Below, piece after piece: positions 6,669-59,633 of a stretch of 64,000 nucleotides of DNA. Position numbers and translations under genes: made by a program. Each line of letters starts with the position of its first letter. Within the stretch, counting starts at the first letter, position 1. The stretch is taken from assembly GCA_025812035.1 (NCBI GenBank), contig GCA_025812035.1_4719.1. One strand, given 5' to 3'. The notes under the pieces were generated by a model, which was given only the letters and a program-made list of their open reading frames with translations, made no database searches and was not told the DNA's origin. This stretch comes from a phage.

Positions 6669-6769
6669 GGTATTGTCCTATACGTTGACGGTTGAGATGT
6701 CGGATGCCGGATGTGTGTTGTCATCCGGTGGTACGTACAGAAACACCCACAGATAAAACAGTAGCTTCT

Positions 6770-6794
6770 CTAACTTCAATTAAATTGAAGTTAG
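6770..6794. repeat. perfect 12-bp inverted repeat with 1-nt spacer (CTAACTTCAATT-A-AATTGAAGTTAG) centred on the stop codon of gene 6780-7496
   Basis: read directly from sequence; AT-rich palindrome straddling a gene end. Confidence 0.4.
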
Positions 6795-7496
6795 ATATTG
6801 TTTACCTCCAACAAACGACGTTAACCAATTACCTGAAACAAGTTGCGATGCCCAGCCAGGCACTGCCCTACCGTTCTGGCTCATCACGTTACCTGCCCAT
6901 CCCGGAAAACCCGGCCGGAAAATATATACTTGAATATGTGTTAAAGCGTTATCATTACCACCGCCAACAGCAACGTTACGACTCCCAGATGACGGGAAAT
7001 ATTCTTTTAAGAACAGAGGATCGGTTGCTAATAAAGATGCGGGCCAAGGGTTCGCGGATGCATCAACATCGAATTCGGTCCATCGCCATTTACGTCCCGT
7101 GTCGAACCATGTCGATGTACCGCCTCCACGCACTGCAAGATTGCGTGCGTCGCGGGCATTGTAAATTGATTCGATGTTACGCCACCCACCTTTTGCGGCG
7201 TTTGCCGCATAGCAAATCGCATTACCACCATTCTTCTTTTCGTAAACAGTTCGTTTGATATGAACACGATCGATGAACGCTTCACCGTATTTGTTGACGA
7301 GCGTTTGTGCGATATCACGAAGATCGTGCATGTGAAAAGCGATGTCTTCGTTATGGAACCATGTTGTCGGGTTCCAGACGGTACCGTTTGGTTCGGCACA
7401 CATCGATCGGATATTGTTGCGTTGATTAACCGCGATAAAACCCATTGTATACCTCGTTCCTATTCTCAAAAAGGAAATTTCATACGATGACGCCAT
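6780..7496 (-). CDS. hypothetical protein, paralog sharing C-terminal domain with 6027-6668
   Basis: start revised to ATG at 7496 (MASSYEISF...), 5 nt downstream of the GGAGGAG arm of the hairpin at 7501-7530; the ORF-track start at 7532 lies inside that hairpin. Confidence 0.5.
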   Translation of the reverse strand: MASSYEISFLRIGTRYTMGFIAVNQRNNIRSMCAEPNGTVWNPTTWFHNEDIAFHMHDLRDIAQTLVNKYGEAFIDRVHIKRTVYEKKNGGNAICYAANAAKGGWRNIESIYNARDARNLAVRGGGTSTWFDTGRKWRWTEFDVDASANPWPASLLATDPLFLKEYFPSSGSRNVAVGGGNDNALTHIQVYIFRPGFPGWAGNVMSQNGRAVPGWASQLVSGNWLTSFVGGKQYLTSI

Positions 7497-7500
7497 AGCA

Positions 7501-7530
7501 GCTCCTCCTTCCCTTACGGGTTGGAGGAGC
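7501..7530 (-). promoter_or_regulatory. GC-rich stem-loop, repeat copy 2; its 3' arm GGAGGAG lies 5 nt upstream of the ATG at 7496
   Basis: 28-nt core identical to the 2368 and 41224 copies; in the transcript the hairpin 3' arm overlaps the Shine-Dalgarno position. Confidence 0.45.
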
Positions 7531-7538
7531 ATACTTAA

Positions 7539-8086: not shown

Positions 8087-8503
8087 TTACATAGCAGCAG
8101 GAAATTCCGGCCAATCGATATTTGGTGCAGCATCGGTATCGACAGCCGTCACGGCATCGATGTAATCCAAAACAGCATTAAGTTGAGTCGTTTCTTCCGG
8201 AGTCAGTTTTCGCCCAGCCCGTAATTTTAACTGAATAAGATCGATGGAAGCCAGCGCTGAATCAATCTTTGATTGTTTTATCTGTTCTGCCTCGGCGACG
8301 AGATCTTCGTGCTGCCGCTCGGGTTCAGGAGGCGCGATAAACTCGCCATCCGAGTATAACCAACCTATTCCAGGTGACACAGTTACCGCATCGCTAATAC
8401 TAACCAACTGTTGATTGTCGGATATATTGAGCTCTGCCTCACCATCGTAAACGATCGTGTTTACTACTACCCCATTTTCAATAACAGCGTATGATGTACT
8501 CAT
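8087..8503 (-). CDS. tail fibre assembly chaperone (Tfa-like)
   Basis: start revised to ATG at 8503, overlapping the fibre gene stop (TAATG); C-terminal AVLDYIDAVTAVDTDAAPNIDWPEFP resembles the conserved tail of Tfa chaperones; lies immediately downstream of the fibre gene. Confidence 0.6.
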   Translation of the reverse strand: MSTSYAVIENGVVVNTIVYDGEAELNISDNQQLVSISDAVTVSPGIGWLYSDGEFIAPPEPERQHEDLVAEAEQIKQSKIDSALASIDLIQLKLRAGRKLTPEETTQLNAVLDYIDAVTAVDTDAAPNIDWPEFPAAM

Positions 8504-11500
8504 TACATAAACTCCTCGATGATGCAAATCCCATTAGCACCACGCCCACCAGGCTTAGCGCTTCCTGAGAAAGAGTTGTCGTAAGCACCACCACCACCCG
8601 AACCAGGCGCGAGGCCGTTGTGGGCGGTGCCAACACCGGCGCGACCGCCACCGCCCCAATATGACGCACCCCCACACCCACCGACAGTAATAGTACCGGC
8701 TTGTCCGTCGCCACCGTCTCCGCCCGGAATGCGTATATCCCCGGTATTAGGTACGCCCCCATAGCCACCACCAGTGTTTGTGATAGTTGTTTTTCCTGCG
8801 CCTTGCCCGCCGGGAGCGGTTAGCAGGGATGCAAATTTACTATCCCCACCCCCGTTTCCAGATGTTGCTCCAGAGCCGCCGGAACCACCAGAACCAATTA
8901 CAACAGAATAACTAGTAGCTGATATCGTTATAACCGAAATTACTGTTCCACCGGCCCCACCGCCAGCACCAAAAAACGTTTCACCGTTGGAAAAAGCCTG
9001 GCAACCACCGCCACCGCCTCCACCACCGGTTATTGTTACTCTAATCCGTTTTGTTCCTTGTGTTGGGGTGTACGTCCCTGACGATGTGAAAACACGCATG
9101 TTCAGTAAACGTCCGACATATCCGCTAGAATCGGCTAAACCAAGATCTTTAGCTGCTAACGTGATATTAGCTGTACCGTCAAACGGTTTACCGTTAATCG
9201 TGCGCGCAGTCTGCAACTTCGTCGCCGTTGCTGCGTTTCCTGATGTATTCTGGTTTCCCGCGGCGTTAACACCCGGCAGATTGATGTTCGCACTACCGTC
9301 GAAAGACACCCCACCAATGGTGCGAGCTGTTTTCAGTTTTGTCGCCGTGGCAGCATTACCGGTCGTGTCTTGGTTACCGGTGGTGTTTACCCCAGGCAGG
9401 TTGATATTTGCCGTTCCGTTAAATGAAACACCACCAATCGTCCTTGCCGTTTGCAACTTCGTTGCGGATGCCGCATTCCCCGTGGTGTTTTGGTTACCCG
9501 TTGCATTCACGCCCGGGATACTATCCTTAGATGTGTAGATCTGTGCCCATTCCGACCAGTTCGAATCGGTTGCATCACGACGTGAACGTAGGTAAGCTGG
9601 AGCGTGTGCGCCCGCGGTACCTGACCACCCAATAAAGATCTCGCCTTCACCGACCGATGAAGCGCCTTTAAGATGAATGACGTTACCATAAGCGGTAGGA
9701 TATCCGTTATTGTACGCTTCATACATCTGGATGCCCGCATTGCTGCCCTGAGCTGTGTTAGCTAAAGCCGTAACACGACCTTTGGAGGCGAGAGCGGTAA
9801 TACTGAAGCTAATGTCCTTAGTACCGTCAAAGGCGACCCCATTAATCTTCCGTGCTGTTTGGAGTTTCGTGGCAGTAGCCGCATTACCAGAGGTACTCTG
9901 ATTACCTGCTTTGTTCACGCCTGGTAAATCAATGTTGGCTGTTCCATCAAAGGACACGCCCCCTATGGTTCTCGCCGTCTGAAGTTTTGTTGCTGAGCCA
10001 GCGTTTCCGGAAGTGCTTTGATTACCTGCCGCGTTGACACCCGGTAGGTTAATGCTAGCAGAACCATCAAAAGAAACTCCACCTATCGTGATCGGTGTTT
10101 TCAATTTCGTGGCTGTCGCGGCGTTACCCGTCGTATTCTGATTACCGGCTGCATTGACGCCAGGTAATGCGATATCGGCCGTACCGTCGAACGCGACACC
10201 ACCGATTTTACGGGCGGTTTGTAGCTTGGTCGCTGTAGCCGCGTTACCGCTGGTATTTTGCGTGCCCGCTTTATTTACACCGGGAAGATCGATGTTGGCA
10301 GAACCATCGAATCTGACGCCACCTATCGTTCTTGCAGTAGCAAGTTTAGCTGCTGTGGCTGCATTATTGCCCACTTTTAGCCAATCATCCCATGGACCAT
10401 CCTGGCCGTTCCACGACGCCGTTAAACCACGTACGTAAATATTGCCTGTACGTACAGTGTACCGTTGCATCCCACCGAATTGTCCGGCTGGGAGTACTTC
10501 AAGGTAACCTGCGGCATTTGCTTCAGGGAAATTGTGGGCGGCGTCCGCGTTCGTCGCTATTGGTTTAGACCAAATACCCACAGACGCTTCAACCGGACCG
10601 TAGGTATTCAGATTTGCGTCAGCAGGGAGTGGTCCTCGGAAACGCAGTAATTGTATTGGCGTTAACCCCAACGTTCTTTGCATTCCCTCGACACTCGATT
10701 GCGATAAAAGTGCCCGAGCTGTCGACGTGATGGTCGCTAAAGCAACCTTGTCGACTCCAGTGAAATAAGGGAATTTGTTCGCTGATGTCGCTAAACCTGA
10801 AAAGGCGGTCAGTAATGCATTAAGGGGTTGCTTCCCAGCTAACGCTTTCGTTACTGTCGTTGAGAAATTAGGATCACTTCCTATAGCTCGAGCCAGCTTA
10901 TTAAGCGTATTTAGCGCATCTGGAGACGAGTCAATCAACGACGTGATCGCACGCATCACAAATTCCGTGTTGGCAATCTGTCGACTGCTATTGTTAATTG
11001 CTGCGGTGGGTGTTGTTGGAGTACCGGTGAATACAGGACTATTAAGATCCGCCTTGAGAGCAATGAGGCGTTTAAGTGCTTCGACATCGACTTTCAGGTT
11101 TTCCCACCCGATGAGAGAACCGTCTCCGTTGGTATGATAACGGTTATACCAGAAGTCGCCGTTAACACCCCAAAAGAATATACCTTTCTCTTCGTTTTGC
11201 GGGCCGGAACTATTTCGCGATGAGCCGATATATTTGATTTCAATAAGACCCTCAAACACGACTCCCGGGATTATTTTGTTGTCTCCAGCTGACTGTACTA
11301 CTTGATAAACTCCAGGCGTTGCTGCTCTAACCCATGTTAAGAATTCCGTTATTCCAGCGGTGCCACTGAAACGCTTAACGTCGGTAAGTATCGCCCCATA
11401 ACCGAACATACCCGGTAACGCAACTCGTCCGCCGGTACGGTCACGAATATTTGAGGCAACGACGGGCAGCTTTTTACGAACGCTGTTAACCGCCTTAGGT

Positions 11501-12021
11501 GTGGCTGCTTTTGTCTCGTCATCGCTATCGATGGCGTTGCTCAGGATGGTCAGTCCTCGCTTATCTATGGTTGCGTCGGGAAGAAACGCGTTATCCAACA
11601 CTTTAAGCTGTACAGCGCTCGTGTTACTAACAACGAGATACATCTGGCAGTTAAGAACGCTGCTTGCGCCTTCAGTAGGAACAGGCTTGTATCTTTCCGG
11701 TGCGCTGCAGACAGCGACCAGAACACCTCGATCGTCATACAAGCCGATTTCGCGTACCCAGAATCCACCTTGGTTTACAGGAATAATACCCTCAACAATA
11801 ATCCTGGTTGTGTCGTCTGCGTCAACGCGGATGTTAGAAACTTCCCCGCGATAAACTTCGTGTACAAGGGCTGTTTGACTAGCATCGGGAGTTGGTGTAG
11901 AGCCGTTACCGTCACCAACGGCAAAATGTGTAATTTTTAGTTTCTCGCCGTCCGGAAGTAGTGCGGCGGCGATACGTTCAGTACCTTTATCGGTAATGAC
12001 CGTTCTATATGTTGTACTCAT
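8503..12021 (-). CDS. long tail fibre protein (P2 gpH-like N-terminus, fibre repeats, Gly-rich tip)
   Basis: 1172 codons; N-terminus MSTTYRTVITDKGTERIAAALLPDGEKLKITHFAVGDGNG...ALVHEVYR matches the P2 H/lambda-type fibre N-domain; two arrays of a ~40-aa repeat (GNAATATKLQTARTIGGVSFDG.ANI.LPGVN); Gly-rich C-terminal region. Confidence 0.85.
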   Translation of the reverse strand: MSTTYRTVITDKGTERIAAALLPDGEKLKITHFAVGDGNGSTPTPDASQTALVHEVYRGEVSNIRVDADDTTRIIVEGIIPVNQGGFWVREIGLYDDRGVLVAVCSAPERYKPVPTEGASSVLNCQMYLVVSNTSAVQLKVLDNAFLPDATIDKRGLTILSNAIDSDDETKAATPKAVNSVRKKLPVVASNIRDRTGGRVALPGMFGYGAILTDVKRFSGTAGITEFLTWVRAATPGVYQVVQSAGDNKIIPGVVFEGLIEIKYIGSSRNSSGPQNEEKGIFFWGVNGDFWYNRYHTNGDGSLIGWENLKVDVEALKRLIALKADLNSPVFTGTPTTPTAAINNSSRQIANTEFVMRAITSLIDSSPDALNTLNKLARAIGSDPNFSTTVTKALAGKQPLNALLTAFSGLATSANKFPYFTGVDKVALATITSTARALLSQSSVEGMQRTLGLTPIQLLRFRGPLPADANLNTYGPVEASVGIWSKPIATNADAAHNFPEANAAGYLEVLPAGQFGGMQRYTVRTGNIYVRGLTASWNGQDGPWDDWLKVGNNAATAAKLATARTIGGVRFDGSANIDLPGVNKAGTQNTSGNAATATKLQTARKIGGVAFDGTADIALPGVNAAGNQNTTGNAATATKLKTPITIGGVSFDGSASINLPGVNAAGNQSTSGNAGSATKLQTARTIGGVSFDGTANIDLPGVNKAGNQSTSGNAATATKLQTARKINGVAFDGTKDISFSITALASKGRVTALANTAQGSNAGIQMYEAYNNGYPTAYGNVIHLKGASSVGEGEIFIGWSGTAGAHAPAYLRSRRDATDSNWSEWAQIYTSKDSIPGVNATGNQNTTGNAASATKLQTARTIGGVSFNGTANINLPGVNTTGNQDTTGNAATATKLKTARTIGGVSFDGSANINLPGVNAAGNQNTSGNAATATKLQTARTINGKPFDGTANITLAAKDLGLADSSGYVGRLLNMRVFTSSGTYTPTQGTKRIRVTITGGGGGGGGCQAFSNGETFFGAGGGAGGTVISVITISATSYSVVIGSGGSGGSGATSGNGGGDSKFASLLTAPGGQGAGKTTITNTGGGYGGVPNTGDIRIPGGDGGDGQAGTITVGGCGGASYWGGGGRAGVGTAHNGLAPGSGGGGAYDNSFSGSAKPGGRGANGICIIEEFM
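9157..9516 (-). repeat. in-frame tandem repeat array (3 units, ~120 bp each) inside the tail fibre gene
   Basis: protein residues ~836-955 repeat the motif PGVN..GNQ.T.GNAA.ATKL.TARTIGGVSF.G.ANI. Confidence 0.7.
9787..10371 (-). repeat. in-frame tandem repeat array (~5 units, ~120 bp each) inside the tail fibre gene
   Basis: protein residues ~551-745 carry the same ~40-aa fibre repeat. Confidence 0.7.
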
Positions 12022-12027
12022 GGCGTT

Positions 12028-12555
12028 TTATCCCGGGTAAATAGTGATGGTGTCACCAACGAGGGTTGTGGCACCAGAGTAAAGATACGCTGGTGATGCT
12101 TCACGTTGGTTAGTCACGGTAAGATTCATTTGCCCACGCCAAACCATGGAGGTATTCGCGATGGGAATCAAGATCTTCTTGGAAGTATCGTCACGAAAAT
12201 TAATGGTGGTAGCAAGGGTAGCTGAATCAAAATCAACGTCAGGTTCAAAGATGAACCCGTATTGATCTGAAATAGCTTGAATGACCGCTCTTATAGTTGT
12301 TGTTTCAACCGACTCCAAAACGATTTTTATCGGTATTCCTAGAAACGCTTTCGCGATATCACGTCGTGTGTAAGTAATAAAACTCTCACCACACCACCTT
12401 GTTCCTTCATTTGCTGTGACGATCACTTTTGCCCTGTTAGCACCAGAACTCCCATCCAGGGTTAAAGTGAGATCGGAGTTACTGAATACGCTACTGTTAC
12501 GTTGGTTTATCAACGCAATCAGTTCGTCCTTCCACGGCGGGTAAAGTGAACGCAT
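12028..12555 (-). CDS. fibre-family N-terminal domain protein (short paralog)
   Basis: start revised to ATG at 12555, preceded by GGAGGAGGG; 175 aa aligning only to the shared N-domain of the fibre paralogs (WKDELIALINQRN...YTRRDIAKAFLGIPIKIV...YGFIFEPDVDF). Confidence 0.5.
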   Translation of the reverse strand: MRSLYPPWKDELIALINQRNSSVFSNSDLTLTLDGSSGANRAKVIVTANEGTRWCGESFITYTRRDIAKAFLGIPIKIVLESVETTTIRAVIQAISDQYGFIFEPDVDFDSATLATTINFRDDTSKKILIPIANTSMVWRGQMNLTVTNQREASPAYLYSGATTLVGDTITIYPG

Positions 12556-12711: not shown

Positions 12712-14466
12712 TTATGCTGCTACGTATCCAGGCCAACGTTCTCTTGGCCAGTTTGTTGCACCCTGTCCGACGGTGTCTTTACCAGAAATGACGTTACTTA
12801 CATCCCATCCACTCAGATCCTGATTGAATGCGGTGTTCTCGCGCATCATGAGATCGATCTTACGTAGTGAGTGGGTATTCCAACCAGATATGTCTTGGTT
12901 GAATGCTTTATTGTAGGCAAACATGTTAGACACGTTCTGTAATTTTGACGTGTTCCAACCACTGATGTCGCTATTGAACGACGTGCTTGAGAACATGCTG
13001 CTCGCATCAACAAGATTGTCGGTTTTCCAATTAACCACTTTATCGCCGTCAAATGCATTGCTGCTGCTGAACATAAAACTCATATTGCTAGCTTTGGACA
13101 CATCCCATTTATCTAACCCTTTACCGACGAACTCATTACATGCCGAGAACATCCAGCTCATATCGGTAACCCGACTCACGTTCCATTTGCTGAAGTCAAG
13201 GTTAAGTTTCTGACACCCTAAGAAGGTCTTATACATGTTGGTGATGCGACTAACATCCCACTCTTGGATGTTAGGGTCGTTAAGCGTCGTTAAGTAGTTG
13301 AACAATGTCGCTAACGACGTCCATTTCTCTGGAATCCGGTTTGGTACCGTACGAAGCGATGCAAGGTTGTTGGTTGACGGAGAGCAGAACATACCGTTAT
13401 CCCAATTTACGATTTCCGTAATTTTGGACCCTTTGATCGTCTGAGTGGTATTACCATCTTTCACTATACCCGTAGCAACGATGGTATATTCACCGGTGCC
13501 TGCATAATCGTGGGCGTAGGCACCGTTACTTGAGGTCTCCGTTACTTTATTCCCATCACCCCAATCGATATTAACTTTATCCCACCCACTTAGGTTGAAC
13601 TGTACTTTGCCTCCGGTAGCTTTTAGGATGTATTTACCTCCATTGTCGGTAAAATAGCAGACAACCATTGAACCGTACAGATTACCTATCCGCCAATCAT
13701 CCTTTTCTGTCACTGCGATTTGCGCTAAGCCACGCTGTACGAAGAGTACTGTGCGGTTCTCGTCAGTCTGTAATGTGGCTAATGCTTGGGCCTTATCGTC
13801 CTCGCTAATTTCATTAGCGCTCACTAAAACGCTTAACATTCTTTCGAAGTATTCGATGGGTAATTGACGTCCTACAGACTTATCAACCGACGGTTCAGCA
13901 AGATCGCCCAACGCTGCAGTGGTGGCCAGCATCAACGAACCCTTGGTCATATCTGTTTCTTGTAGGTAGTGCAGTCCTGTAATCTGGTACGCTTGAATAA
14001 TCGTAATCAGGTTCAGCGTATCGTTAACGACCTGTACTTGTAAATGTCCAGACCATACGTAGCTGCTTTCGGCAATTGGTAGTTCGACCGACTGGATACC
14101 TGATGTTTCAAAGGTGATCTTCTTGTTAAGATCGGTTTCCAGGAAATCAACAGCGAGGTCAAAATTTATACCGTACTTCTCAGCGATAGAATCCACGATG
14201 TTTCTGAAAGCAACGTCATTATTTACGATGAAACGTAATGGGATTCCTGCAAACGCTCTAGCAATGTCTCGACGAACATACGTGAGCGACTGCTCGAAGA
14301 AATAGGGGCTACCATCTCGCGGTTTAATGGTCACCTGACATACTTCGGGATATTCAGCTGGGATTAACGACACGAATTCAACATCGGATTCTTTCAATGA
14401 AAGCATATTCTTCCGGTTTACTAATGCCAGAAGATCGGCTTTCCAACCAGGATAAACTGTAGACAT
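12712..14466 (-). CDS. tail fibre-like protein with PKD-like segment and DUF285-type repeats
   Basis: start revised to ATG at 14466 (GGAGTG upstream; MSTVYPGWKADLLALVN aligns with paralog N-termini); IDWGDGNKVT...YAHDYAGTGEYTI is PKD-like; C-terminal repeats of type FNQDISGWNTS..M..MF are DUF285/BspA-like. Confidence 0.6.
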   Translation of the reverse strand: MSTVYPGWKADLLALVNRKNMLSLKESDVEFVSLIPAEYPEVCQVTIKPRDGSPYFFEQSLTYVRRDIARAFAGIPLRFIVNNDVAFRNIVDSIAEKYGINFDLAVDFLETDLNKKITFETSGIQSVELPIAESSYVWSGHLQVQVVNDTLNLITIIQAYQITGLHYLQETDMTKGSLMLATTAALGDLAEPSVDKSVGRQLPIEYFERMLSVLVSANEISEDDKAQALATLQTDENRTVLFVQRGLAQIAVTEKDDWRIGNLYGSMVVCYFTDNGGKYILKATGGKVQFNLSGWDKVNIDWGDGNKVTETSSNGAYAHDYAGTGEYTIVATGIVKDGNTTQTIKGSKITEIVNWDNGMFCSPSTNNLASLRTVPNRIPEKWTSLATLFNYLTTLNDPNIQEWDVSRITNMYKTFLGCQKLNLDFSKWNVSRVTDMSWMFSACNEFVGKGLDKWDVSKASNMSFMFSSSNAFDGDKVVNWKTDNLVDASSMFSSTSFNSDISGWNTSKLQNVSNMFAYNKAFNQDISGWNTHSLRKIDLMMRENTAFNQDLSGWDVSNVISGKDTVGQGATNWPRERWPGYVAA

Positions 14467-14618
14467 AAGCACTCCAATCATGGGGCGGTAACCGCACCCA
14501 ACGGTTAAATTGTCGATTATGGTCGTTGCTGATAAGACGACCATAACCAACGATGTTTAATATGTAGTATATTGATATCATGACGTTATGGGGATCTAAG
14601 TCATACCATGGAGACGGC

Positions 14619-16524: not shown

Positions 16525-16551
16525 ACCCTTCCCGCGTAAGGCAGGAAGGGT
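16525..16551 (-). promoter_or_regulatory. intergenic stem-loop (ACCCTTCC/GGAAGGGT) followed in the transcript by TTATGCTGTTAAAC
   Basis: inverted repeat read directly; loop contains CGTAAGG, as in the 2368 family. Confidence 0.4.
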
Positions 16552-23716: not shown

Positions 23717-23744
23717 CGGCATAAGCCCTCCCATAACGGGAGGG
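23717..23744 (-). promoter_or_regulatory. stem-loop (CCCTCCC-loop-GGGAGGG) followed by CTTATGCCG box
   Basis: hairpin 23726-23744 plus box 23717-23725 in minus sense, between the stop of gene 23750-24178 and the start of the methyltransferase gene. Confidence 0.45.
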
Positions 23745-35082: not shown

Positions 35083-35710
35083 TGATACCCTCTATTAGTT
35101 GTACGGCAACTTCTCTTTCGGTGTTATAAAAGAACTTGCGATGGAACTGAACAAGAAGTTTTTCGAATTTACATTGAACGATCTTTTTACGTTCGATGTG
35201 ACCCAGGGAGAGCAAAGCACCCATGCAACGTACTGCTTGTTCGAGAACTTGTTTCGCGGTATCGTGATCGTCAGGCAACGGTAAATCTTCCTCATCATCT
35301 TTAGCGATAAGGCGTCTGATGATGTTATCAATACGTATCTCATCACCGTTAATAAAAGCCCCCTTCTCCCAGTCATCGAATCGTTGATGGATTCGACGTT
35401 GTAAGTTGGCCCTGTCTTCCATTAACTCTTTCAACTGGTTTTCTAAGTTGAATACGGTACGGCGATCTGTTTCAGTGAATCTTTCCGACTCTTTGTACCA
35501 CCAATCATTACGTGCCAGTAAATCATTGACACGCGATACCATCCGACGACATTCACCAACAAGTCCATCACCATTCGGTAGCTCTGTACCGAAATAGCAT
35601 TTGTATTTATAACGCATAACACGGATTAAATGTTTTGCTAGAAAACCTTGTTTTTCCAGTTTCTTCTTCAGTTGCGTGTATTTCTCTTCTTTTGTTTCCA
35701 TTAATTCCAT
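35069..35710 (-). CDS. hypothetical protein
   Basis: 213-codon ORF, charged and helix-rich. Confidence 0.45.
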   Translation of the reverse strand: MELMETKEEKYTQLKKKLEKQGFLAKHLIRVMRYKYKCYFGTELPNGDGLVGECRRMVSRVNDLLARNDWWYKESERFTETDRRTVFNLENQLKELMEDRANLQRRIHQRFDDWEKGAFINGDEIRIDNIIRRLIAKDDEEDLPLPDDHDTAKQVLEQAVRCMGALLSLGHIERKKIVQCKFEKLLVQFHRKFFYNTEREVAVQLIEGINEVK

Positions 35711-36099
35711 GATGTTGTACCTCGTTCAGCAATCAGGAGGGTCGTGGTTGTGCTTTTCACTAATCTATTAAAGTCTTGATATATCCGCCTGAGGGATGAT
35801 TTCAAATCGCAATAACGACTGAAATAAGCCTTCAGGTCATCTTTTGTCACCGTCTCCGTATTTATTTTCGTAGAAACACCGAGATCGATAAACTCTTTTC
35901 TTAATTGGGATAATTCGTCAAGAAGTCGATGATGGCTTAGATAAATAATAGATTTATCGGATAATAACTCGCCGGTTATCCGGCTCTGGCGTTCATCGAG
36001 ATATTGGAGCCGCCATTCAATTCGCTTGCGTAATTTATCAAGTAAATCAACAAAAGCGGTATAGCTGTTAACGGCTAGGTTAACTTGACTCGCTATCAT
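35701..36099 (-). CDS. hypothetical protein
   Basis: 132-codon ORF. Confidence 0.4.
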   Translation of the reverse strand: MIASQVNLAVNSYTAFVDLLDKLRKRIEWRLQYLDERQSRITGELLSDKSIIYLSHHRLLDELSQLRKEFIDLGVSTKINTETVTKDDLKAYFSRYCDLKSSLRRIYQDFNRLVKSTTTTLLIAERGTTSWN

Positions 36100-38604: not shown

Positions 38605-38666
38605 CTCGTAGTAAAAGTAAATAGGATTTGTCGAGACGCCCTAATTACTTACAACGTAGGTTCTCC

Positions 38667-39551
38667 TCAATAACGGCCGTAGCGTTCCTCGAGCCGTTCT
38701 GGTTTTCTCAGAAGGCTATCTTTAAGCGGTACGACGTCGATATCAACACTCTCTGAGTAATAGCCGTTAGAACTACCATACCAACGGATGACAACACAGC
38801 CCTTCGCAGTGCGGATATGGTAGAATGTCCATTGTGTACGTTCGCTATAATAGCCGTAGTCATCGGTTCTTTCCTCGGTTCTTTCTTCAGCACTGAGTAT
38901 CTTTTCACCGATGATATCGTTAATATCGCCCTCAATGTCTTCAAGATACACCTCTTCGCAGCAATCCTGCTGATGACAGAATTCGACAACGTTTCCATCG
39001 CCGCGATAGAAAAGAAGGGCGATACCGTTTCGTAATTGCTCGCTCGTTACATCAGACACGCAATGCAAACTTTTATCGTCGGTTATCACCAAGACATTGT
39101 TGATTACATGCCCGGCAAGCGCTCCAATCTTATTTACCGTAACAATCGGACGAACCGGTTCAGATTGAACGATAGGAATACGGACACAACCAATTAAGGC
39201 CATCCGTCCTTTCGTTGGTCTAACCGCAAGATAAGGTGATTTTCTTGGGTGGTTATGTAGTCGTATTTCTACTTCGTTGAATTTAATCCCGTATGAACAC
39301 AGAAAATAATTGAATAGTTTACGGAATTCCTCGGTTGCTTCTTGCAACGTGATGTTATTTACTGTGAGTTTATGTCCCCTAAACACCCGGGTTAAATCGA
39401 TAACATCCAGTGTTTTGAAATATATTTCCGTAAGGGGATGACCCGTGTATTCCAGGCAAGTAATTGTTCTTTGAACCACGATTTTAGGCGGTGCGCCTTT
39501 AAAACGTTTCAGGTATTTAACGCGATAACGGGTATGATCTGACGTTAACAT
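38667..39551 (-). CDS. hypothetical protein
   Basis: start revised to ATG at 39551 (AGGAGAGGAG 7 nt upstream); the ORF-track N-terminus at 39552-39650 coincides with a hairpin+TTTATGCCG element and is more likely 5' UTR. Confidence 0.5.
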   Translation of the reverse strand: MLTSDHTRYRVKYLKRFKGAPPKIVVQRTITCLEYTGHPLTEIYFKTLDVIDLTRVFRGHKLTVNNITLQEATEEFRKLFNYFLCSYGIKFNEVEIRLHNHPRKSPYLAVRPTKGRMALIGCVRIPIVQSEPVRPIVTVNKIGALAGHVINNVLVITDDKSLHCVSDVTSEQLRNGIALLFYRGDGNVVEFCHQQDCCEEVYLEDIEGDINDIIGEKILSAEERTEERTDDYGYYSERTQWTFYHIRTAKGCVVIRWYGSSNGYYSESVDIDVVPLKDSLLRKPERLEERYGRY

Positions 39552-39616
39552 TTTAATCTCCTCTCCTGGCTTCAGAGAATTCTCAAAATCCGTTAGTTTT
39601 GATAGACGGGATAAGA

Positions 39617-39646
39617 CGGCATAAAAGCCTCCCGTATTGGGAGGCT
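39617..39646 (-). promoter_or_regulatory. stem-loop (AGCCTCCC/GGGAGGCT, 8 bp) followed by TTTATGCCG box
   Basis: hairpin 39626-39646 and box 39617-39625 in minus sense, about 65 nt upstream of the revised start at 39551. Confidence 0.45.
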
Positions 39647-39658
39647 CCATTAATCGGC

Positions 39659-47588: not shown

Positions 47589-47615
47589 CGGCATAAACCC
47601 TCCCCGAAGGGAGGG
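47589..47615 (-). promoter_or_regulatory. stem-loop (CCCUCCC-UUCG-GGGAGGG) followed directly by TTTATGCCG box
   Basis: hairpin 47598-47615 with a UUCG tetraloop in minus sense, box 47589-47597; between the phosphatase gene and the next gene. Confidence 0.45.
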
Positions 47616-47625
47616 TGATTAACGA

Positions 47626-49589: not shown

Positions 49590-51671
49590 ATGTTGGATAG
49601 AATAAATCGTCTAATGAACCGAATAGCGGTTAAAAATCAGAGTAACAACACCGTGCATATCGGGGGTATCGATGCCTGGCGTCTTTCAGATGACATTCAG
49701 AGAATATGGGGTACCTCCCGATTTATGAAACATATGTTTCGTAATTTCTCTTCCAGTGGACTCAGTCTTCACAACTTTTACCTTCCCGATTTCGTTTATA
49801 TTCTTGAAACGATCATCGAGGCAAAGAATACCCGCAGTAACAAACGCATGCTGAAACACCTTATCGAGGTGCTGCTGCAGGAAACATGGCTGCAAAATAC
49901 CACAATCGAGCAACCTGCAATCCTCGATAAAGCGCGCATGAAGAAAATGATGACGCTTTCTTTGTTCGATTATCAAGATGAGTTTATCGACATCTATAAC
50001 CGTAACGTACCTAAATATCGACTGAAAGGATACGTGTGTGCGATGGGTGCCGGTGCCGGTAAAACTATTACCGCCTTGGCCTTAAGTGCCGCCATGAACG
50101 TCGACGTGTTTGTGGTGTGTTGTCCTAAAAATACGATGCGTTCAGCATGGCAATCCGATGTAAACAAAGCCATCGTTGACCCTGCAACAGAAACCGCGTT
50201 CTGGTCAGATACCATGCCACCATCACAACTACAGAAAAGCGATAAGTACTATTTCCTGCATTACGAATCGATGGGCTTATTAAACGATGTAATGATCAAA
50301 CATAAACGTACAGCGAAACGCGTTCTTATTGTTGTTGACGAAAGCCATAACTTCAACGACAAGAACAGTCAACGTTCCCAACGATTGGTTGATCTTGTAC
50401 AGACGATGCGTCAGACCATGAATGCGGATGTGCATGTCTTGTTTATGTCGGGTACGCCTGTTAAGCAGATGGGTTCTGAGATGATCCCGTGTTTAGGTTG
50501 TATTGACCCGATGTTCCAAGGACAGGTGGTCGATAGCTTCAAATCAATTTACGGTTTAACCAGCAGCCGTGCTAACGATATCCTCAGACATCGTCTTGGG
50601 TTCATGATGCACGTTGTACCTAAAGAAGCTTATCGTAAAACCCGCCCGGAAGTTCAGGACGTTTACGTGAAACTTCCTAACGGTAGCGATTATACCATCT
50701 CGAGTATCCGTGACGATATGGCGATATTTGTACGCGATCGGGCTAAGTATTACAAGGATAACTGGGGGCATTACCGAAAGATCTTTGATGACGCCTTGGA
50801 TTATTACCGTAAAACTATCCGTACTGATGGAGAACGTAGAGAGCTGTCTCGATATGAATCGATTGTCGCTCGTTTCCAGAAAGGTTACGATCCTGTCAGA
50901 GACAAAGAAGATGCGATGTTCTGCAACGCGTTTGAAAAACGTTCCATCATGCCGGTTCTTCCTTCCGATTTAAGGATCGCTTTCAAAGACGCCAAGAGCG
51001 TCATCAAGTACGTTGGGTTGAAAATTCAGGGTGAAGCGTTAGCTCGTGTTCTAGGTGCTGCCCGCATTCGGTGTCATGTCGACATGGTGGAGTACATTGA
51101 CTTCGAAGGGTACATCAACAACGCTGAAGCCAAGGTGTTGATCTTCACGTCGTATGTTCAGGTGGTTGAACGTGTCGACACCATGCTTCGCGATGCTGGT
51201 TTCTTACCTGAACCGATTTACGGGAAGACTAACAAGAACATCAACCAGATACTTGCTCGTTTACGTGACGATCCTGACAGCGGTCCCGCTATCGCAACAT
51301 TTGATAGTTTGGCTGAAGGGGTTCCAATGCTGATGTGTAATGTGGGCCTTTTCCTGAACAACCCATGGCGTTCGTCTGATGAAATTCAGGCCATCAGCCG
51401 TCTCGATCGTGTAGGGCAAACGCAACCTGTTCGGATTTATCGTTTCATGTTAGACACAGGAAGTGAGGGTAACGTTTCTACACGTAGTCATGAGATCATG
51501 GAGTTAAGTCGACAGCTTGTTGAAGAAATCACTGGCGTCAAATACGTAGTGAACAAGCAAGATGATGTTAACTTGCAAGAAACGTTAGCGATGGAAGGAT
51601 ACGATCAATACGTTACCGTAAACCCTAAGGAATACGATATTAAACCGCGGTCTGTGTTCTTGGAATGGTGA
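49590..51671 (+). CDS. SNF2-family helicase
   Basis: Walker A MGAGAGKT, motif II VVDESHNF, motif III FMSGTPVKQ, motif VI QAISRLDRVGQTQPVRIYRF. Confidence 0.8.
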   Translation: MLDRINRLMNRIAVKNQSNNTVHIGGIDAWRLSDDIQRIWGTSRFMKHMFRNFSSSGLSLHNFYLPDFVYILETIIEAKNTRSNKRMLKHLIEVLLQETWLQNTTIEQPAILDKARMKKMMTLSLFDYQDEFIDIYNRNVPKYRLKGYVCAMGAGAGKTITALALSAAMNVDVFVVCCPKNTMRSAWQSDVNKAIVDPATETAFWSDTMPPSQLQKSDKYYFLHYESMGLLNDVMIKHKRTAKRVLIVVDESHNFNDKNSQRSQRLVDLVQTMRQTMNADVHVLFMSGTPVKQMGSEMIPCLGCIDPMFQGQVVDSFKSIYGLTSSRANDILRHRLGFMMHVVPKEAYRKTRPEVQDVYVKLPNGSDYTISSIRDDMAIFVRDRAKYYKDNWGHYRKIFDDALDYYRKTIRTDGERRELSRYESIVARFQKGYDPVRDKEDAMFCNAFEKRSIMPVLPSDLRIAFKDAKSVIKYVGLKIQGEALARVLGAARIRCHVDMVEYIDFEGYINNAEAKVLIFTSYVQVVERVDTMLRDAGFLPEPIYGKTNKNINQILARLRDDPDSGPAIATFDSLAEGVPMLMCNVGLFLNNPWRSSDEIQAISRLDRVGQTQPVRIYRFMLDTGSEGNVSTRSHEIMELSRQLVEEITGVKYVVNKQDDVNLQETLAMEGYDQYVTVNPKEYDIKPRSVFLEW

Positions 51672-51772
51672 TTAAGAAGCTCTGCCTGATGTCAGGCAGA
51701 GCTTTATGCTGCGTTTACTGCAAAATCGTATGACGTATATACGTCGTAATGATTAAAAATAGGGCAGAACAC

Positions 51773-53227
51773 ATGAAACTCAAACAAAGCTGGAAAAACG
51801 AACTCCTTGCATTAGTAAACAGCAAAAACAGTTTACAACTGACATTAGACGACGTAAAATTTGAACTAACCGAACCGGTAAGCGAAGTGCCTGGAACGGT
51901 CGTTGTTACGATCAAACCGAACGATAATAGTCGCTACTTTAACGAGCAGTCTCTGACCTACGTCCGTCGAGACATTGCTAAAAACTTCACCGGGATTCCG
52001 TTACGGGTTATCGTTAAAAAAGATACCGCCGTAAGGGATATCATCAGTACGATTGCTAAACGTTACGGACTGGTATTTGATACCACTGTCGACTTCCTCG
52101 AATCAGAACTGAATAAGCAAATTACTTTCGCAGACACCGGTATTAAAGACGTTACGGTTCCGGTTGCCAATACGTCTTATGTTTGGGCCGGTAATCTTCA
52201 GTTCAATATCGCTAACGATACGTTAAGCTTGATTACTATCATCAAGAAAACCGATCTTACGAATCTGGTTTATCTGGATGGTGTTGAAGCTGACACATCG
52301 GGGTCGTTACTGTTAGCAACCGCAGCACTTGTTAACGAACACGTAAATGAACCGATGGTTGAAAACGAAGATATCGTTAATGAATTCATTAACGTTCTTA
52401 ATGCTCTAGCCAAATATGGTGACATAACCGGCGATGAATTAGATGCCGCCTTACAAGCGTACGATGAAGCAGAAAACAGGAATAAAACCACGGTAATAAC
52501 TCTTGGTGATATCGAGTGCGTTGCAACCGAAAAAGACGATTGGGAAATTGGACATTTACGCGGTCGGATGGTTCTCGCGCTCAAATCCGATAAACAACCG
52601 GAGCTCGATAACACGTTCAGGTTGTTTACGAATGGTGGTGATGTATCGCTAACGTTAAACACAATGAAAGATATAAGTATCGATTGGGGTGATGGGAATA
52701 AAGTAACGTTGGATGCCGAAGAAAGATACGCGCACCACACATATGCCGACAATAACCAATACCAAATCGAAATTGTGTCTCGTACGGACCCAGATGTGCT
52801 GCGACCAAATTATATTTCTGGGAGTGAGATAACCGAAGTAATTCACTGGGCTACTACTTCAACAATAGCTCTGAATTTTGTTGGATGCGATAATTTAGCG
52901 ACTGTTCCAGATGAGATCCCAACTTCGTGGACAACGTTGGACAGCATGTTTGAAAGTTGTACGAATTTGAATGATCCGTCTATCTCTAACTGGAATACAA
53001 GTAACATCACATCAATGAATGGTATGTTCGGCGGATGCACTAAATTTAACCAACCTTTAGCTGCCTGGGATGTCAGCTCGGTAACTGACATTGGTGGTAT
53101 GTTTGTCGGGTGTAGCAGTTTTAACCAAGATTTAAGTGGATGGCGATTACCGTCTGGAGTAAACCACCGCGATTACGATAGTGGTGCTTTCTCGTGGCAG
53201 ACGGAACATAAACCGACGTTCAAGTAA
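51773..53227 (+). CDS. tail fibre-like protein (shared N-domain, PKD-like segment, DUF285-type repeats)
   Basis: start revised to ATG at 51773 (MKLKQSWKNELLALVN aligns with paralog N-termini); IDWGDGNKVT...YAHHTY; C-terminal ...FNQPLAAWDVSSVTDIGGMF...FNQDLSGW. Confidence 0.55.
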   Translation: MKLKQSWKNELLALVNSKNSLQLTLDDVKFELTEPVSEVPGTVVVTIKPNDNSRYFNEQSLTYVRRDIAKNFTGIPLRVIVKKDTAVRDIISTIAKRYGLVFDTTVDFLESELNKQITFADTGIKDVTVPVANTSYVWAGNLQFNIANDTLSLITIIKKTDLTNLVYLDGVEADTSGSLLLATAALVNEHVNEPMVENEDIVNEFINVLNALAKYGDITGDELDAALQAYDEAENRNKTTVITLGDIECVATEKDDWEIGHLRGRMVLALKSDKQPELDNTFRLFTNGGDVSLTLNTMKDISIDWGDGNKVTLDAEERYAHHTYADNNQYQIEIVSRTDPDVLRPNYISGSEITEVIHWATTSTIALNFVGCDNLATVPDEIPTSWTTLDSMFESCTNLNDPSISNWNTSNITSMNGMFGGCTKFNQPLAAWDVSSVTDIGGMFVGCSSFNQDLSGWRLPSGVNHRDYDSGAFSWQTEHKPTFK

Positions 53228-53247
53228 AAAAAAAATAGTTAGCATAT

Positions 53248-53280
53248 CTTCCTCCCCGCCCATAACGGGCGGGGAGGAAG
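53248..53280. terminator. bidirectional terminator candidate (14-bp stem CTTCCTCCCCGCCC/GGGCGGGGAGGAAG) between convergent genes
   Basis: perfect inverted repeat; preceded by A10 on the plus strand (U tract for the minus strand) and followed by GTTTATGCGC. Confidence 0.55.
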
Positions 53281-53636: not shown

Positions 53637-54598
53637 TCAATTTCTCCATTCTTATCTTGGTCGCAGTCGCATTCTTCGTTGTTCTTCTTACTTAAACGTA
53701 AGACACCGAGTGCAGCATGCTTGAGTTCTTGCAAGGCGCTTTTCAGCTGACCTTCTTCGTCGAAATCAAAATACTTCTCGTTGTAGCTTAATGCTGGAAT
53801 CATATTTACGAGAGGTTCGATGGCAGGCATCAGCATTTCAATGACGACCTTAGGGTCAACAAAACGTTCAAACCCTTCAGGAAGTTTACTTGCCACAACC
53901 TTATCGTTCTTGATGTAGAATTTGTTCTTGAACAAATCGTCAAGAATAGCGTTTTCTTCATCCGTGCGTTCCGCATAAGGACGATCGATCATCTGAACGA
54001 AAACACCATTCAATGTTTCAGGTACAGATGGATTTTCACGAATCGAAACCCCACCAGGAATCTCAATATCGATCTTCGCCCACTCAACTACCTGATGGTC
54101 TCGCGTGTAGATAACATCTACTTCCCACGCCAGACCGTCAGGACTTTCTACGGTGTAACGTGTTTTCGCTTGACCTTCCGGAGCCATACGCTCAATGGCA
54201 TCAAACATCTCGACCGGAATTTCTACTTCGCTTTCCGTCGCGTCACCTGGACCGCGATACACCTTCGTGGTCATGATGTATTTCGGTTCTTCGTTACCGA
54301 TCTGTATCGCACGTGCGCGCACCTGACCTTTCACACCACCAACGGCTGTGTTATCGAACAACCATTGATGTTGCACCATATGTTCAATTTTCGATGCTAC
54401 TTGACGAAGACGTTCAACGCCATCTTCGGCCAGTTTGCCAAAGAAGACCAGCTCACGTTCCTGCTGTGTCTCACCACTTAACATCATTAAATTGGCGATT
54501 TGTTTCACGCCTCTTACTTTTGACATACATGCTCCGGTTATAAGGGTCTGTTTCCAGACCCCTCGTTGATTTTTGATTTCACCAAACGCTATCGTCAC
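53633..54598 (-). CDS. hypothetical protein
   Basis: 321 codons; 4-nt overlaps with the genes on both sides suggest an operon with the helicase. Confidence 0.45.
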   Translation of the reverse strand: MTIAFGEIKNQRGVWKQTLITGACMSKVRGVKQIANLMMLSGETQQERELVFFGKLAEDGVERLRQVASKIEHMVQHQWLFDNTAVGGVKGQVRARAIQIGNEEPKYIMTTKVYRGPGDATESEVEIPVEMFDAIERMAPEGQAKTRYTVESPDGLAWEVDVIYTRDHQVVEWAKIDIEIPGGVSIRENPSVPETLNGVFVQMIDRPYAERTDEENAILDDLFKNKFYIKNDKVVASKLPEGFERFVDPKVVIEMLMPAIEPLVNMIPALSYNEKYFDFDEEGQLKSALQELKHAALGVLRLSKKNNEECDCDQDKNGEIE

Positions 54599-56856
54599 AA
54601 TTCGAAATCTTCATCGATAACGCGCTGTGTGAGCACCTTGTCACTGAAGAACTCTACTTTGCGCTGATGGTATTTACGGTGCGCTTCGATAGAGGTACAC
54701 ACCAGATACCAGAACGTTGGCGTCATTCCTTCAAACTTCCCTTTCAGCTGACGCAGTCGCCCCAACACCTGAATGTTACCGGTTCGTGATCCCATCGCTA
54801 ACGTCATGAACGCCATCACCAAATCAGGGAGGTCGATACCTGTCCCCGCCGATTTCACGGTTGTAACGCTGATATCGTTATCCAACAAGACCATGAAATC
54901 TTCTTCAGCGGTATAAGGACCGATCTCTAACTCGGGAATACGTTCACTGAGATAGTGCGACAATGACTTACACATATCAACGGTTGCACAATACACCAGC
55001 ATCTTCATACCTTCCTGATACTGGTTCATGAAACCTTTGATGATAACCGTATAGATAAAGTTGAAATACGCGAGTTTGAGTTGCTTATTCTTCATGATAG
55101 ACTGTTCGAATATCGTGTGTGAATAAGAACCCCCAAAGCCTTTGTATCTGATTTTATCTGTACTACGTAGTCGATACGTCACGGCATTTACCGCAATGTA
55201 TTTCTTGTATTCGCCTTTTGCGAAACGCGCTTCTTTCGGATACATCAAATACAACATCCGCTCGATGAACGGATCATCGGATACCGCTGTTGCCGACAGA
55301 TAAATGATTTCCGGAATATTGGCGTAACACTTGACTTTAAACAAGAAATGCAAGGCTTCGTGACATTCGTCGTGAATCAGTAGACCTATACCCGTCTTTT
55401 CCCAAAACTCAGCGGGATGGAAGGCGTATGGCGCAACGCAGTTATTCTTCTCGTAGTCCGCAATATAACGTTGGAACATGTTCAAGGAGAATAACGCGAT
55501 TTTGAAATCCAGCTCGCCTTGTTCCACCAACGTCTGGAATTCCAGCATGCTGTAACGAGGAATGTCGGGATGCGGTGGATCCTCCTTAGCGTTCCCGCGT
55601 ATCTCAATAACGTCCCCTGGTTCCATTCCGAAGAAGTTCAGCAATGAGCTTCGCCAACCTGGCATATACCGTGGAGAGAGTATGATGCCTGTGCGTACAC
55701 CACGTCGAAACACGATTTCCTGTGACATCGCGGTGTTGTGTGTGACGATGTGGTCTTTAATGACATAAAGGCTTTCGTCATTATCCACCGTGATGCAACG
55801 TGCTTTCGCTTTAACTGTCGGTACGATGCTATCAATCGCTAAACCAGGAAGCCTGTTAACAGGGAGATCGTCTGGAATCTCAACGTCGTCAGGAATAAGC
55901 TTAAGTAAATCGGAATGATAAATTAATGTCTCCATCGTGTAACTATCGATGGGGCATTTATACGCAATTCCTCCTAACTGATACGCCAACTCCCAAACCT
56001 TGGTTGTTATCTGTGAATCAACGGTTCTGACCGCAAGGTGAGCCTGTCCGTTTTCGATTCGCAACTCACAACGACCTTTGACCACCACCTTAAATTCTTC
56101 GAGACCTACGAGTTCTTTCGGTTCGTAAAGTCGGATTCTTATCGGACGGGGTCTGGCAGGTTTATCGTAAAGACATTCCATGATTTCGTCTGTGCTGAGA
56201 ACCTTATCGGGGTCAGTACAACGCCAGAGATGATCGCCACAAGCTTCAACCATTCTACCGTCCTCAAAGAAGATAGCATAAAGCTGAATATTGTCATGAT
56301 CGAAGATCGCTGTAACGTTGGTCGGTAGCCCATTCGCACCAATAACCCGATCCCCTACTTGAAGCTCACCAATCGGCTTCCAACCACCTGGAACCTTTAC
56401 AGGCGTATGAAGCGCTAGCGCTTTGCCACTGCCTGTTTGAGCGGTGTTTAGGCTCATTCTGAAGGGGGTATCCTTACCCCCGTTCATGTACTCCAGCCAT
56501 TCTTGCTGATCTTCTCGCCACGGAAACTTCCATTTCTTTACGAACTCCACTTCCTTACCGGGTACCGGATCATGGTAAACGATCTCCAGCCACTCTTTTC
56601 GGATTCCTCGGGAAAAGATAAAATCCAAAAACGATTTCAACTGTTCGCGGAGTAAGTATACCTCGCTATAATCGCTTCTCGCTGCGGCATACGTGTTTAT
56701 GGTATCGGTAACCATTCTCCGTGTACGAGGGTCACGTCGTTTCCTCAGATGCAAACAACGGTCTCGAAGGTAATGGCCGATAAGATGGGCAAATCGAAGT
56801 CCGTATCCGCTCAGCTTCATGCCATGCGAGAAGACGTCGATACGAGCTAACTTCAT
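54595..56856 (-). CDS. DExH-box helicase interrupted by an intein
   Basis: Walker A AQTGSGK...T split by an insertion; motif II LIHDECHE; SAT; motif V/VI VKSAGTGIDLPD and QVLGRLRQ. Confidence 0.7.
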   Translation of the reverse strand: MKLARIDVFSHGMKLSGYGLRFAHLIGHYLRDRCLHLRKRRDPRTRRMVTDTINTYAAARSDYSEVYLLREQLKSFLDFIFSRGIRKEWLEIVYHDPVPGKEVEFVKKWKFPWREDQQEWLEYMNGGKDTPFRMSLNTAQTGSGKALALHTPVKVPGGWKPIGELQVGDRVIGANGLPTNVTAIFDHDNIQLYAIFFEDGRMVEACGDHLWRCTDPDKVLSTDEIMECLYDKPARPRPIRIRLYEPKELVGLEEFKVVVKGRCELRIENGQAHLAVRTVDSQITTKVWELAYQLGGIAYKCPIDSYTMETLIYHSDLLKLIPDDVEIPDDLPVNRLPGLAIDSIVPTVKAKARCITVDNDESLYVIKDHIVTHNTAMSQEIVFRRGVRTGIILSPRYMPGWRSSLLNFFGMEPGDVIEIRGNAKEDPPHPDIPRYSMLEFQTLVEQGELDFKIALFSLNMFQRYIADYEKNNCVAPYAFHPAEFWEKTGIGLLIHDECHEALHFLFKVKCYANIPEIIYLSATAVSDDPFIERMLYLMYPKEARFAKGEYKKYIAVNAVTYRLRSTDKIRYKGFGGSYSHTIFEQSIMKNKQLKLAYFNFIYTVIIKGFMNQYQEGMKMLVYCATVDMCKSLSHYLSERIPELEIGPYTAEEDFMVLLDNDISVTTVKSAGTGIDLPDLVMAFMTLAMGSRTGNIQVLGRLRQLKGKFEGMTPTFWYLVCTSIEAHRKYHQRKVEFFSDKVLTQRVIDEDFEL
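55735..56421 (-). other. intein (~229 aa) inserted in the helicase P-loop
   Basis: N-terminal block ALALHTPVKVPGGWKPIGELQVGDRVIG resembles intein block A but begins with Ala; C-terminal block ...SLYVIKDHIVTHN followed by Thr; removing it restores GSGKT. Confidence 0.55.
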
Positions 56857-59580: not shown

Positions 59581-59633
59581 GAAAAATAAACAACAACATA
59601 AAACCCTCCCACCTCCACGCGGGAGAGGGAGGG
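59581..59633 (-). terminator. stem-loop with bulge (CCCUCCC...GGGAGGG) followed by UUUUAUGUUGUUGUUUAUUUUUC
   Basis: hairpin 59604-59633 plus U-rich run in minus sense downstream of gene 59652-60014. Confidence 0.5.

Follow-up and report, generated by a model that had tools for sequence, protein, structure and literature searches.

The 64,000-nucleotide stretch of phage DNA analyzed here (the window; contig GCA_025812035.1_4719.1 of NCBI GenBank assembly GCA_025812035.1) carries, at positions 51773-53227 on the plus strand, a gene for a 484-residue protein. We consider it probable, at about 0.62, that this product is a gp161-type chimallivirus DUF7941 virion protein with a docking half and an exchangeable host-adhesion half. 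From N to C terminus it is built of a DUF7941 module, a helical spacer, a beta-sandwich and a DUF285/PARCEL leucine-rich repeat (LRR) end. Throughout the Goslar interval compared (~91-157 kb), Escherichia phage vB_EcoM_Goslar and the window are collinear, with ~91% nucleotide identity, and the 51773 open reading frame (ORF) is the positional ortholog of Goslar gp161 (YP_009820846.1). The two share locus, domain order and near-equal length (484 versus 483 residues), and both score above the DUF7941 and DUF285 thresholds, although their distal 300 residues are only ~40% identical. Goslar is a nucleus-forming E. coli jumbo phage (Goslarvirus; Chimalliviridae according to 10.64898/2026.04.21.720040), and the collinearity places the 51773 gene in a chimallivirus, as is expected of a DUF7941 member. 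A protein identical to its product is recorded at NCBI from an E. coli assembly, which fits the report that nearly all sequences of Goslar-like phages are contigs in enterobacterial assemblies, a phage isolate having been sequenced once (10.1101/2024.12.31.630880). Among complete E. coli RefSeq genomes, none matches the window DNA. Orthology, architecture, folds, synteny and the breakpoints and alleles described below come from our analysis, while virion presence, copy numbers and the filaments of gp22 are taken from the literature. An alternative start codon (ATG at 51749) has no support from the paralogs or from the Goslar annotation.

An earlier note on this DNA, made from the sequence alone, had grouped four ORFs by a common N-terminal domain followed by differing C-terminal parts, and both profile and pairwise comparisons bear this out. 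Pfam DUF7941 (PF25613, gathering cut-off 27 bits) matches the four products at 91.8 (51773), 79.0, 64.1 and 142.2 bits. Pairwise BLASTP aligns ~150-180 residues among them at 30-42% identity (E 1e-21 to 1e-38), and a hidden Markov model of the N-domain, run against 322 six-frame ORFs of the window, returns exactly these four. The other three lie on the minus strand: 3392-6004 (870 aa), with a complete DUF7941 plus NCTSP_N and TIM-barrel_NCTSP, is the ortholog of Goslar gp86 (96% identity); 12028-12555 (175 aa), with the DUF7941 N-domain only, is the ortholog of gp91 (83% identity); and 12712-14466 (584 aa) combines a DUF7941 N-module with a beta-sandwich and eight PARCEL repeats. The last is a full-length paralog of the 51773 product (42% identity across 463 aa by BLASTP). 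In the 51773 product the DUF7941 match (E 6.6e-26) runs from residue 4 to 187 on profile positions 5-193 of 276, covering the N-domain and linker part alone.

The constant module, residues 1-183 (51773-52321), consists of the DUF7941 N-terminal globular domain and a linker (DLTNLVYLDG...SLLLAT). In an AlphaFold2 model built from 64 homologs (mean predicted local distance difference test, pLDDT, 84.8), residues ~1-150 form an alpha/beta domain and ~160-180 a linker of low confidence. The sole significant fold match of the module in the PDB is phiKZ gp127 (PDB 9xqd chain 0), a DUF7941 N-domain of the outer peripheral baseplate that shares the fold and, unlike the 51773 product, has no LRR end. 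Because the only fold match sits in the outer peripheral baseplate, the N-module is plausibly a baseplate-associated attachment module, as the earlier note had proposed for the shared domain. At the level of sequence, a profile search of PDB sequences did not detect gp127 and gave only a spurious transketolase (E 0.32), so that a sequence tie to solved structures was set aside. The linker aligns with NLGNLTYVDEG...ARLLTY of Goslar gp22 and with the matching segments of gp31, gp33 and gp34, the motif L-x-x-L-x-Y being common to all five proteins. Since the segment is disordered in the monomer and nevertheless conserved across paralogs, it may be a docking segment, the role predicted in 10.64898/2026.04.21.720040.

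That April 2026 preprint lists ten Goslar DUF7941 proteins (gp22, 23, 31, 33, 34, 86, 91, 92, 93 and 161), reports that purified gp22 forms filaments, predicts that the linker of gp22 docks onto the next protomer, and, for phiKZ, fits a gp126-gp127 heterodimer to the density of the outer peripheral baseplate. Its authors propose an assembly of DUF7941 proteins into head-to-tail filaments with their anchor at the peripheral baseplate, a "DUF7941 fibre cloud" that displays carbohydrate-binding, hydrolase and LRR domains for host recognition (10.64898/2026.04.21.720040). Its label-free (LFQ) mass spectrometry (MS; Table S4) counts ~111 copies of gp161 per virion (range 74-174), next to ~10.6 of gp160 (the SNF2 helicase), ~4.9 of gp92, ~4.8 of gp93, ~4.5 of gp86 and ~1.2 of gp91 (10.64898/2026.04.21.720040), and it follows that gp161 outnumbers the fibre-cluster DUF7941 proteins gp86, gp91, gp92 and gp93 in particles. 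The earlier note had held that absence from virions would speak against its proposal; the ortholog is present at ~110 copies by LFQ-MS, and because of this detection the 51773 product is very probably a virion protein. The same figures bear on a simpler arrangement, in which the product would be a monomeric or low-copy spike bound directly to the peripheral baseplate in the manner of phiKZ gp127, with no DUF7941 filaments involved. The gp127 N-terminal domain, the sole experimentally resolved DUF7941 domain, is indeed modelled beside the outermost baseplate dimer, and the filament model is based on AlphaFold predictions and negative-stain images of one paralog; yet ~110 copies of gp161 exceed the plausible baseplate sites, and the linker motif shared with filament-forming gp22 is conserved. 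We regard a direct spike as rather improbable.

The distal end of the product, residues 367-484 (52871-53224), is a DUF285/PARCEL LRR of ~25-residue repeats, one degenerate and three canonical, closed by a C-terminal cap. Pfam DUF285 (PF03382, cut-off 25 bits) matches residues 387-465 at 89.4 bits (E 1.8e-25) and the 12712 product at 152.1 bits (E 7e-45). NCBIfam TIGR02167 (the 26-residue "PARCEL repeat", cut-off 30) scores 51.7 bits in the former, in two matched stretches, and 52.6 in the latter. In the model, residues 361-484 form an LRR solenoid with pLDDT above 95. These results uphold the assignment of DUF285/BspA-like repeats to the 51773 and 12712 products, and structure prediction, one of the checks proposed in the earlier note, supports both the gp127-like fold of the N-module and the solenoid. 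Read by eye, the sequences hold four repeats in 51773 and eight in 12712, the 100-aa difference in length corresponding to four repeats; the scaffold residues W, F, C, N and M are near-invariant and the remaining positions variable.

DUF285 is shared with BspA-like and PARCEL surface proteins of bacteria, such as Bacteroides ovatus BACOVA_04585 (PDB 4fs7) and the PARCEL lipoproteins of Mycoplasma. The 51773 product differs from them in having only four repeats, in the lack of a signal peptide or lipobox, and in the fusion of its LRR to a phage virion anchor. The palindromic coding by which PARCEL repeats are defined, the antisense strand encoding a similar repeat (PMC2996958), was not found either: the antisense ORF overlapping the repeats (52843-53091, 82 aa) has no Pfam match at E<=1, in what was a single crude test. 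The notion that such repeats are unusual in a fibre of an enterobacterial phage does not hold, since DUF285 is present in Citrobacter phage Tr1, Edwardsiella phage pEt-SU, Erwinia phage AH04, Pantoea phage Survivor, Klebsiella phage N1M2 and Serratia phages, several of the large enterobacterial phages. Two of these phages, unrelated to the one in the window, lend supporting context to an adhesion role: Tr1 encodes a Big_2+DUF285 protein just after a "tail assembly protein", and pEt-SU has a 1699-aa BspA-like protein with a "virion structural protein" on one side and a "baseplate assembly protein" on the other.

Between the constant module and the repeats lie a helical spacer (residues 184-235, 52322-52477; model helices 179-187, 202-214 and 220-232) and a beta-sandwich (residues 236-366, 52478-52870), the model showing three helices across 179-232 and a beta-rich region at 239-360. 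The beta-sandwich carries the W-x-x-G-D-G...H-x-Y motif (ISIDWGDGNKVTLDAEERYAHHTY), and D-W-G-D-G and a Tyr after it are invariant in 61 homologs. The earlier note had called this segment PKD-like, and by motif (IDWGDGNK...H.Y) it is so. PKD_4 is its sole Pfam match, at 14.9-15.8 bits (E 0.015-0.028) and below the cut-off of 27, the 12712 paralog likewise reaches 15.7 bits against a PKD cut-off of 23.5, and structure comparison returns a generic beta-sandwich fold. In the Pfam check, then, DUF285 stands above threshold and PKD below it; residues 236-366 are a beta-sandwich with a PKD-like motif, and a PKD domain is not established.

The two parts of the gene differ in conservation. Against L008, an otherwise near-identical Goslar-like contig whose flanks are 96-99% identical to the window, nucleotide identity falls from 100% to ~45% at ~52320 and returns to 93-100% from ~53246, at the terminator hairpin, which delimits a variable cassette at 52320-53245. 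Against Goslar gp161, residues 1-180 are ~95% identical and the rest 23-53%, and blastn of the distal part finds no match in Goslar. Across 55 ortholog clusters, residues 1-183 are 89-100% identical and residues 184-484 37-100%, and the two parts are uncoupled (in cluster P0005, N 99.5% and C 41%). Clustering of alleles at 70% identity yields several lineages (at least six), with that of the window being rare (3 of 56 gp161-type sequences, that is, Goslar gp161 plus the 55 database clusters). The N-domains split cleanly by locus (95% versus 56%); the C part of the window protein, in contrast, is equidistant, with 40% identity to the common gp161 alleles and 38% to the 584-aa paralog. Relative to the closest allele, L012, nonsynonymous (dN) and synonymous (dS) divergence are 0 and 0.02 for residues 1-235, versus 0.10 and 0.18 for residues 236-484, which points to a second, internal breakpoint and to imported or fast-evolving sequence. 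A search for an external donor with the cassette only, against 5.8 billion proteins, gave nothing above ~40% identity outside Goslar-like phages. Two 276-aa DUF7941-only proteins (P0066 and P0076) align with the first 57% of the 51773 product at 73-74% identity. They may be assembly artefacts or come from truncated genes of the gp161 type that keep N-module and spacer and lack beta-sandwich and LRR.

Receptor-binding proteins are classically recognized by a conserved anchor joined to a distal cassette that is swapped. With modular receptor-binding proteins of tailed phages the 51773 product shares the sharp break at a conserved junction, the uncoupled N and C parts and the breakpoint at the 3' end. 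It differs from them in having no tail-fibre Pfam domain and no evident trimeric fibre or spike architecture, in an anchor that is a polymerising DUF7941 module, and in a binding domain of LRR type in place of a beta-helix or knob. We infer binding of the LRR to the host surface, incorporation through the N-module and late expression. In this scheme, residues 1-183 would dock onto other DUF7941 subunits, the peripheral baseplate or both, which would place the late-expressed product in the filament cloud proposed for Goslar. Residues 184-484 would be the ligand-binding end, with the LRR surface most likely projecting toward a structure of the host envelope. The variable half is exchanged among Goslar-like phages, in our reading by homologous recombination with one crossover within the conserved junction (...GSLLLAT...) and another at the terminator hairpin downstream, and such exchange would change specificity.

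Several points weigh against this reading. The virion evidence concerns the Goslar ortholog, only ~40% identical distally to the window protein. The Goslar MS preparation also held nuclear-shell and PhuZ material, the Goslar baseplate map has no resolved DUF7941 density, and the filament-cloud model is called speculative by its own authors (10.64898/2026.04.21.720040). The dN/dS ratio of the cassette is ~0.5 and not above 1, and a hairpin that is annotated as a terminator in Goslar separates the helicase gene from the gp161-type gene. Binding of a host structure, for the window protein and gp161 alike, is something we infer, and to our knowledge there is no ligand known for any DUF285 domain. 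The C-terminal alleles, moreover, are not sorted simply by the genus of the source assembly, Goslar-type alleles occurring in E. coli, Salmonella, Shigella and Enterobacter assemblies alike.

This last point also favors an alternative in which the product is virion-associated and does not bind a receptor. Its LRR would instead bind environmental glycans or mucus, another phage protein (as a structural cap or regulator of filaments) or a cytoplasmic target of the host after injection, and hypervariability would reflect escape from a host defence sensor. The position of the gene next to a virion-packaged SNF2 helicase and outside the fibre cluster agrees with such a role, as do ~110 copies per virion, far above the need of six-fold baseplate sites, and the fact that PHROGs assigns DUF285 no function. 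Yet the N-module has a fold seen on the outside of the phiKZ baseplate, DUF285 proteins of cellular organisms bear surface-protein annotations and in many cases also contain PKD or secretion-sorting domains, DUF285 genes adjoin tail or baseplate genes in other phages, and the anchor-and-cassette structure is that of receptor-binding proteins. We judge a non-receptor role to be unlikely, though it deserves more weight than a direct spike.

With respect to its location, the 51773 gene follows an SNF2-type helicase gene (49590-51671, plus strand), its co-oriented upstream neighbor, whose product shares 97.5% identity with Goslar gp160. A plus-strand hairpin with a 12-bp stem, followed by TATGC (51677-51709; hairpin 51677-51704), separates the helicase stop from the 51773 gene; at the corresponding site the Goslar annotation has a putative terminator. 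An A10 run (53226-53235, plus strand) overlaps the stop codon TAA (53225-53227), and a GC-rich hairpin with a 14-bp stem (53248-53280, readable on both strands) stands between the convergent genes, at the 3' edge of the variable cassette. Because it is followed by GTTTATGC on the plus strand and by ATATGC on the minus strand, the latter hairpin looks like a bidirectional terminator. The flanking elements that the earlier note had listed (A10, hairpins and a convergent gene) are thus all in place.

From these flanks, from the distance of ~37 kb to the fibre cluster and from the opposite strand, the earlier note had read a displaced or moron-like classical fibre or receptor-binding gene, inserted beside the helicase; the lack of a nucleotide match to Goslar in the distal part could be taken in the same sense. 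Comparison with related phages, which the earlier note had itself suggested, shows the gene at the same site, so that it is fixed in place and its acquisition as a whole is not supported. All five Goslar-like genomes compared (Goslar, L008, L009, L010 and L012, one of the contigs stemming from an assembly of Shigella sonnei) have the order HD phosphohydrolase (-), SNF2 helicase (+), DUF7941-DUF285 (+), 112 aa (-), 297 aa (-), SF2 helicase (-). In Klebsiella phage Eowyn, a more distant phage, a 172-aa DUF7941 ORF stands two genes past the SNF2 helicase on the same strand, and the phiKZ-like phage PA7 has two "virion structural protein" genes after its helicase, again on the same strand. The PA7 genes (gp165/166) were considered as hidden DUF7941 members and rejected (no Pfam match; hhalign probability 0.6%). 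Base composition is not atypical (GC 0.424 in the N part and 0.428 in the cassette; window 0.455, helicase gene 0.451), conservation is 91-100% in the first 183 codons and in both flanks, a donor above ~40% identity outside Goslar-like phages was not found, and the Pfam search shows no tail-fibre or tailspike domain in the product. Neither absence from this site in related genomes nor foreign composition, as expected of a moron, is what we observe. A displaced gene is largely refuted by synteny, and we hold it to be very improbable. What survives of a recombinational origin concerns solely the C-terminal 300 codons, which act as a recombining cassette, and not the gene as a whole.

In Goslar-like phages, Eowyn and PA7 the helicase and the gene or genes downstream of it thus form a small co-oriented unit coding for virion proteins, rather than a replication locus with a strayed fibre gene. 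By the genomes compared, a DUF7941 gene beside the SNF2 helicase is conserved beyond the Goslar-like genus. This corrects a tempting misreading: the 51773 gene is no misplaced fibre gene but has a fixed place in a small unit of virion-protein genes on the plus strand, beside the packaged SNF2 helicase.

In the specific case of the fibre cluster, the classical tail fibre is the ORF at 8503-12021 (minus strand, 1172 aa), with Phage_tail_fib, Phage_fiber_2 and Gly_rich_2 domains. The label "tail fibre" that had been given to the four DUF7941 proteins is loose, as the fibre domains sit in this ORF and the role proposed for DUF7941 proteins is that of subunits in head-to-tail filaments, as opposed to trimeric fibres. 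Next to it, the window has the ORF at 12712-14466 in place of two DUF7941 genes of Goslar, gp92 (a "tail protein" of 1198 aa) and gp93 (276 aa), the interval concerned being window 12723-14596 versus Goslar 103564-108078. With this 584-aa ORF, DUF7941 proteins that end in an LRR number two in the window phage and one in Goslar. The 584-aa type is represented by ~50 database clusters, which indicates that at least two alternatives for filling the gp92/93 slot exist in the population.

A bolder proposal, which we put forward tentatively and with clearly less confidence than a gp161-type adhesion protein, is that DUF7941-PARCEL proteins form a distinct, non-trimeric LRR class of receptor-binding proteins. 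They would be carried at ~100 copies on long head-to-tail filaments, with cassettes swapped at the conserved junction across Goslar-like phages and across two paralogous loci (the gp161 and gp92/93 sites), and they, rather than the classical fibre, would set the host range among E. coli, Shigella, Salmonella and Enterobacter.

The protein family is already described in the 2026 preprint (10.64898/2026.04.21.720040), and the copy in the window is a new and rare allele. To that description our analysis adds a constant anchor with a swappable cassette across the population, with exact breakpoints, a second LRR paralog replacing gp92/gp93, and a DUF7941 gene beside the SNF2 helicase that is conserved beyond the genus; these additions are useful yet expected for a host-recognition protein. 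The question on which the DUF7941-LRR cassette bears is host recognition by Goslar-like phages. If the cassette is a host-range determinant, the junction at ~52320 and the terminator boundary at ~53245 would offer a ready-made swap point for host-range engineering, the alleles (at least six lineages at <=70% identity) a usable catalogue, and the presence of two such proteins here versus one in Goslar would become usable as well.

Hairpins of the kind that flank the 51773 gene recur in the window as GC-rich hairpins followed immediately by (T)TATGC, with no T-tract. They lie at 16525-16551, 23726-23744, 39624-39648, 47597-47616 and 59604-59627 on the minus strand, at 51677-51704 on the plus strand and at 53248-53280 on both, and their Goslar equivalents are annotated as putative terminators. 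A generic terminator scan misses these sites: our scan for sigma-70 promoters and intrinsic terminators gave nothing above shuffled expectation and missed both T-tract-less hairpins around the 51773 gene. TATG is the core of the phiKZ late promoter, with G as +1 (PMC4666361), and, judged from the sequence pattern, the hairpin-TATGC element could serve as a terminator specific to chimalliviruses, as a terminator-promoter pair, or in both ways.

Further differences are found in the fibre cluster. The classical fibre has 1172 aa versus 1324 aa in Goslar gp90, and its internal ~120-nucleotide repeats cross-match Goslar at 65-85% in many registers, which points to variation in repeat number in the fibre shaft. 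Two tandem paralogs at 6027-6668 and 6780-7532 (both minus strand), with the C-terminal motif GFPGW.GN.MSQNGRAVPGW.SQLVSGNWLTSFVGGKQY, correspond to the single Goslar gene gp87; neither has a Pfam match, and window positions 6720-7442 have no Goslar match beyond weak similarity to gp87. A distant DUF7941+DUF285 relative (27% identity, 477 aa) is encoded at 4199-5632 of the metagenome contig L011 (ERZ27298684 k141_12685), in the fibre-cluster region, with gp94/95-like genes on one side and a Macro-domain gene on the other. The classical long fibre gene is apparently absent from that contig, whose gene content suggests a reduced host-recognition cluster in another chimallivirus lineage.

Elsewhere in the window, a segment without Goslar counterpart (38666-39562) holds a 327-aa ORF (38667-39650, minus strand), and a second small gap in the Goslar alignment lies at 35699-36093. 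The SF2 helicase ORF at 54595-56856 (minus strand) encodes 753 aa versus 524 aa in Goslar gp164, owing to a 229-aa insert (55735-56421) that immediately follows the Walker-A "GSGK". Goslar lacks this insert, while L008, L009, L010 and L012 have it. It starts with ALALHTPV and ends with IVTHN|T, its Pfam Hint matches are weak (E 0.09-0.19), and by these features it looks like an intein with Ala at position 1.

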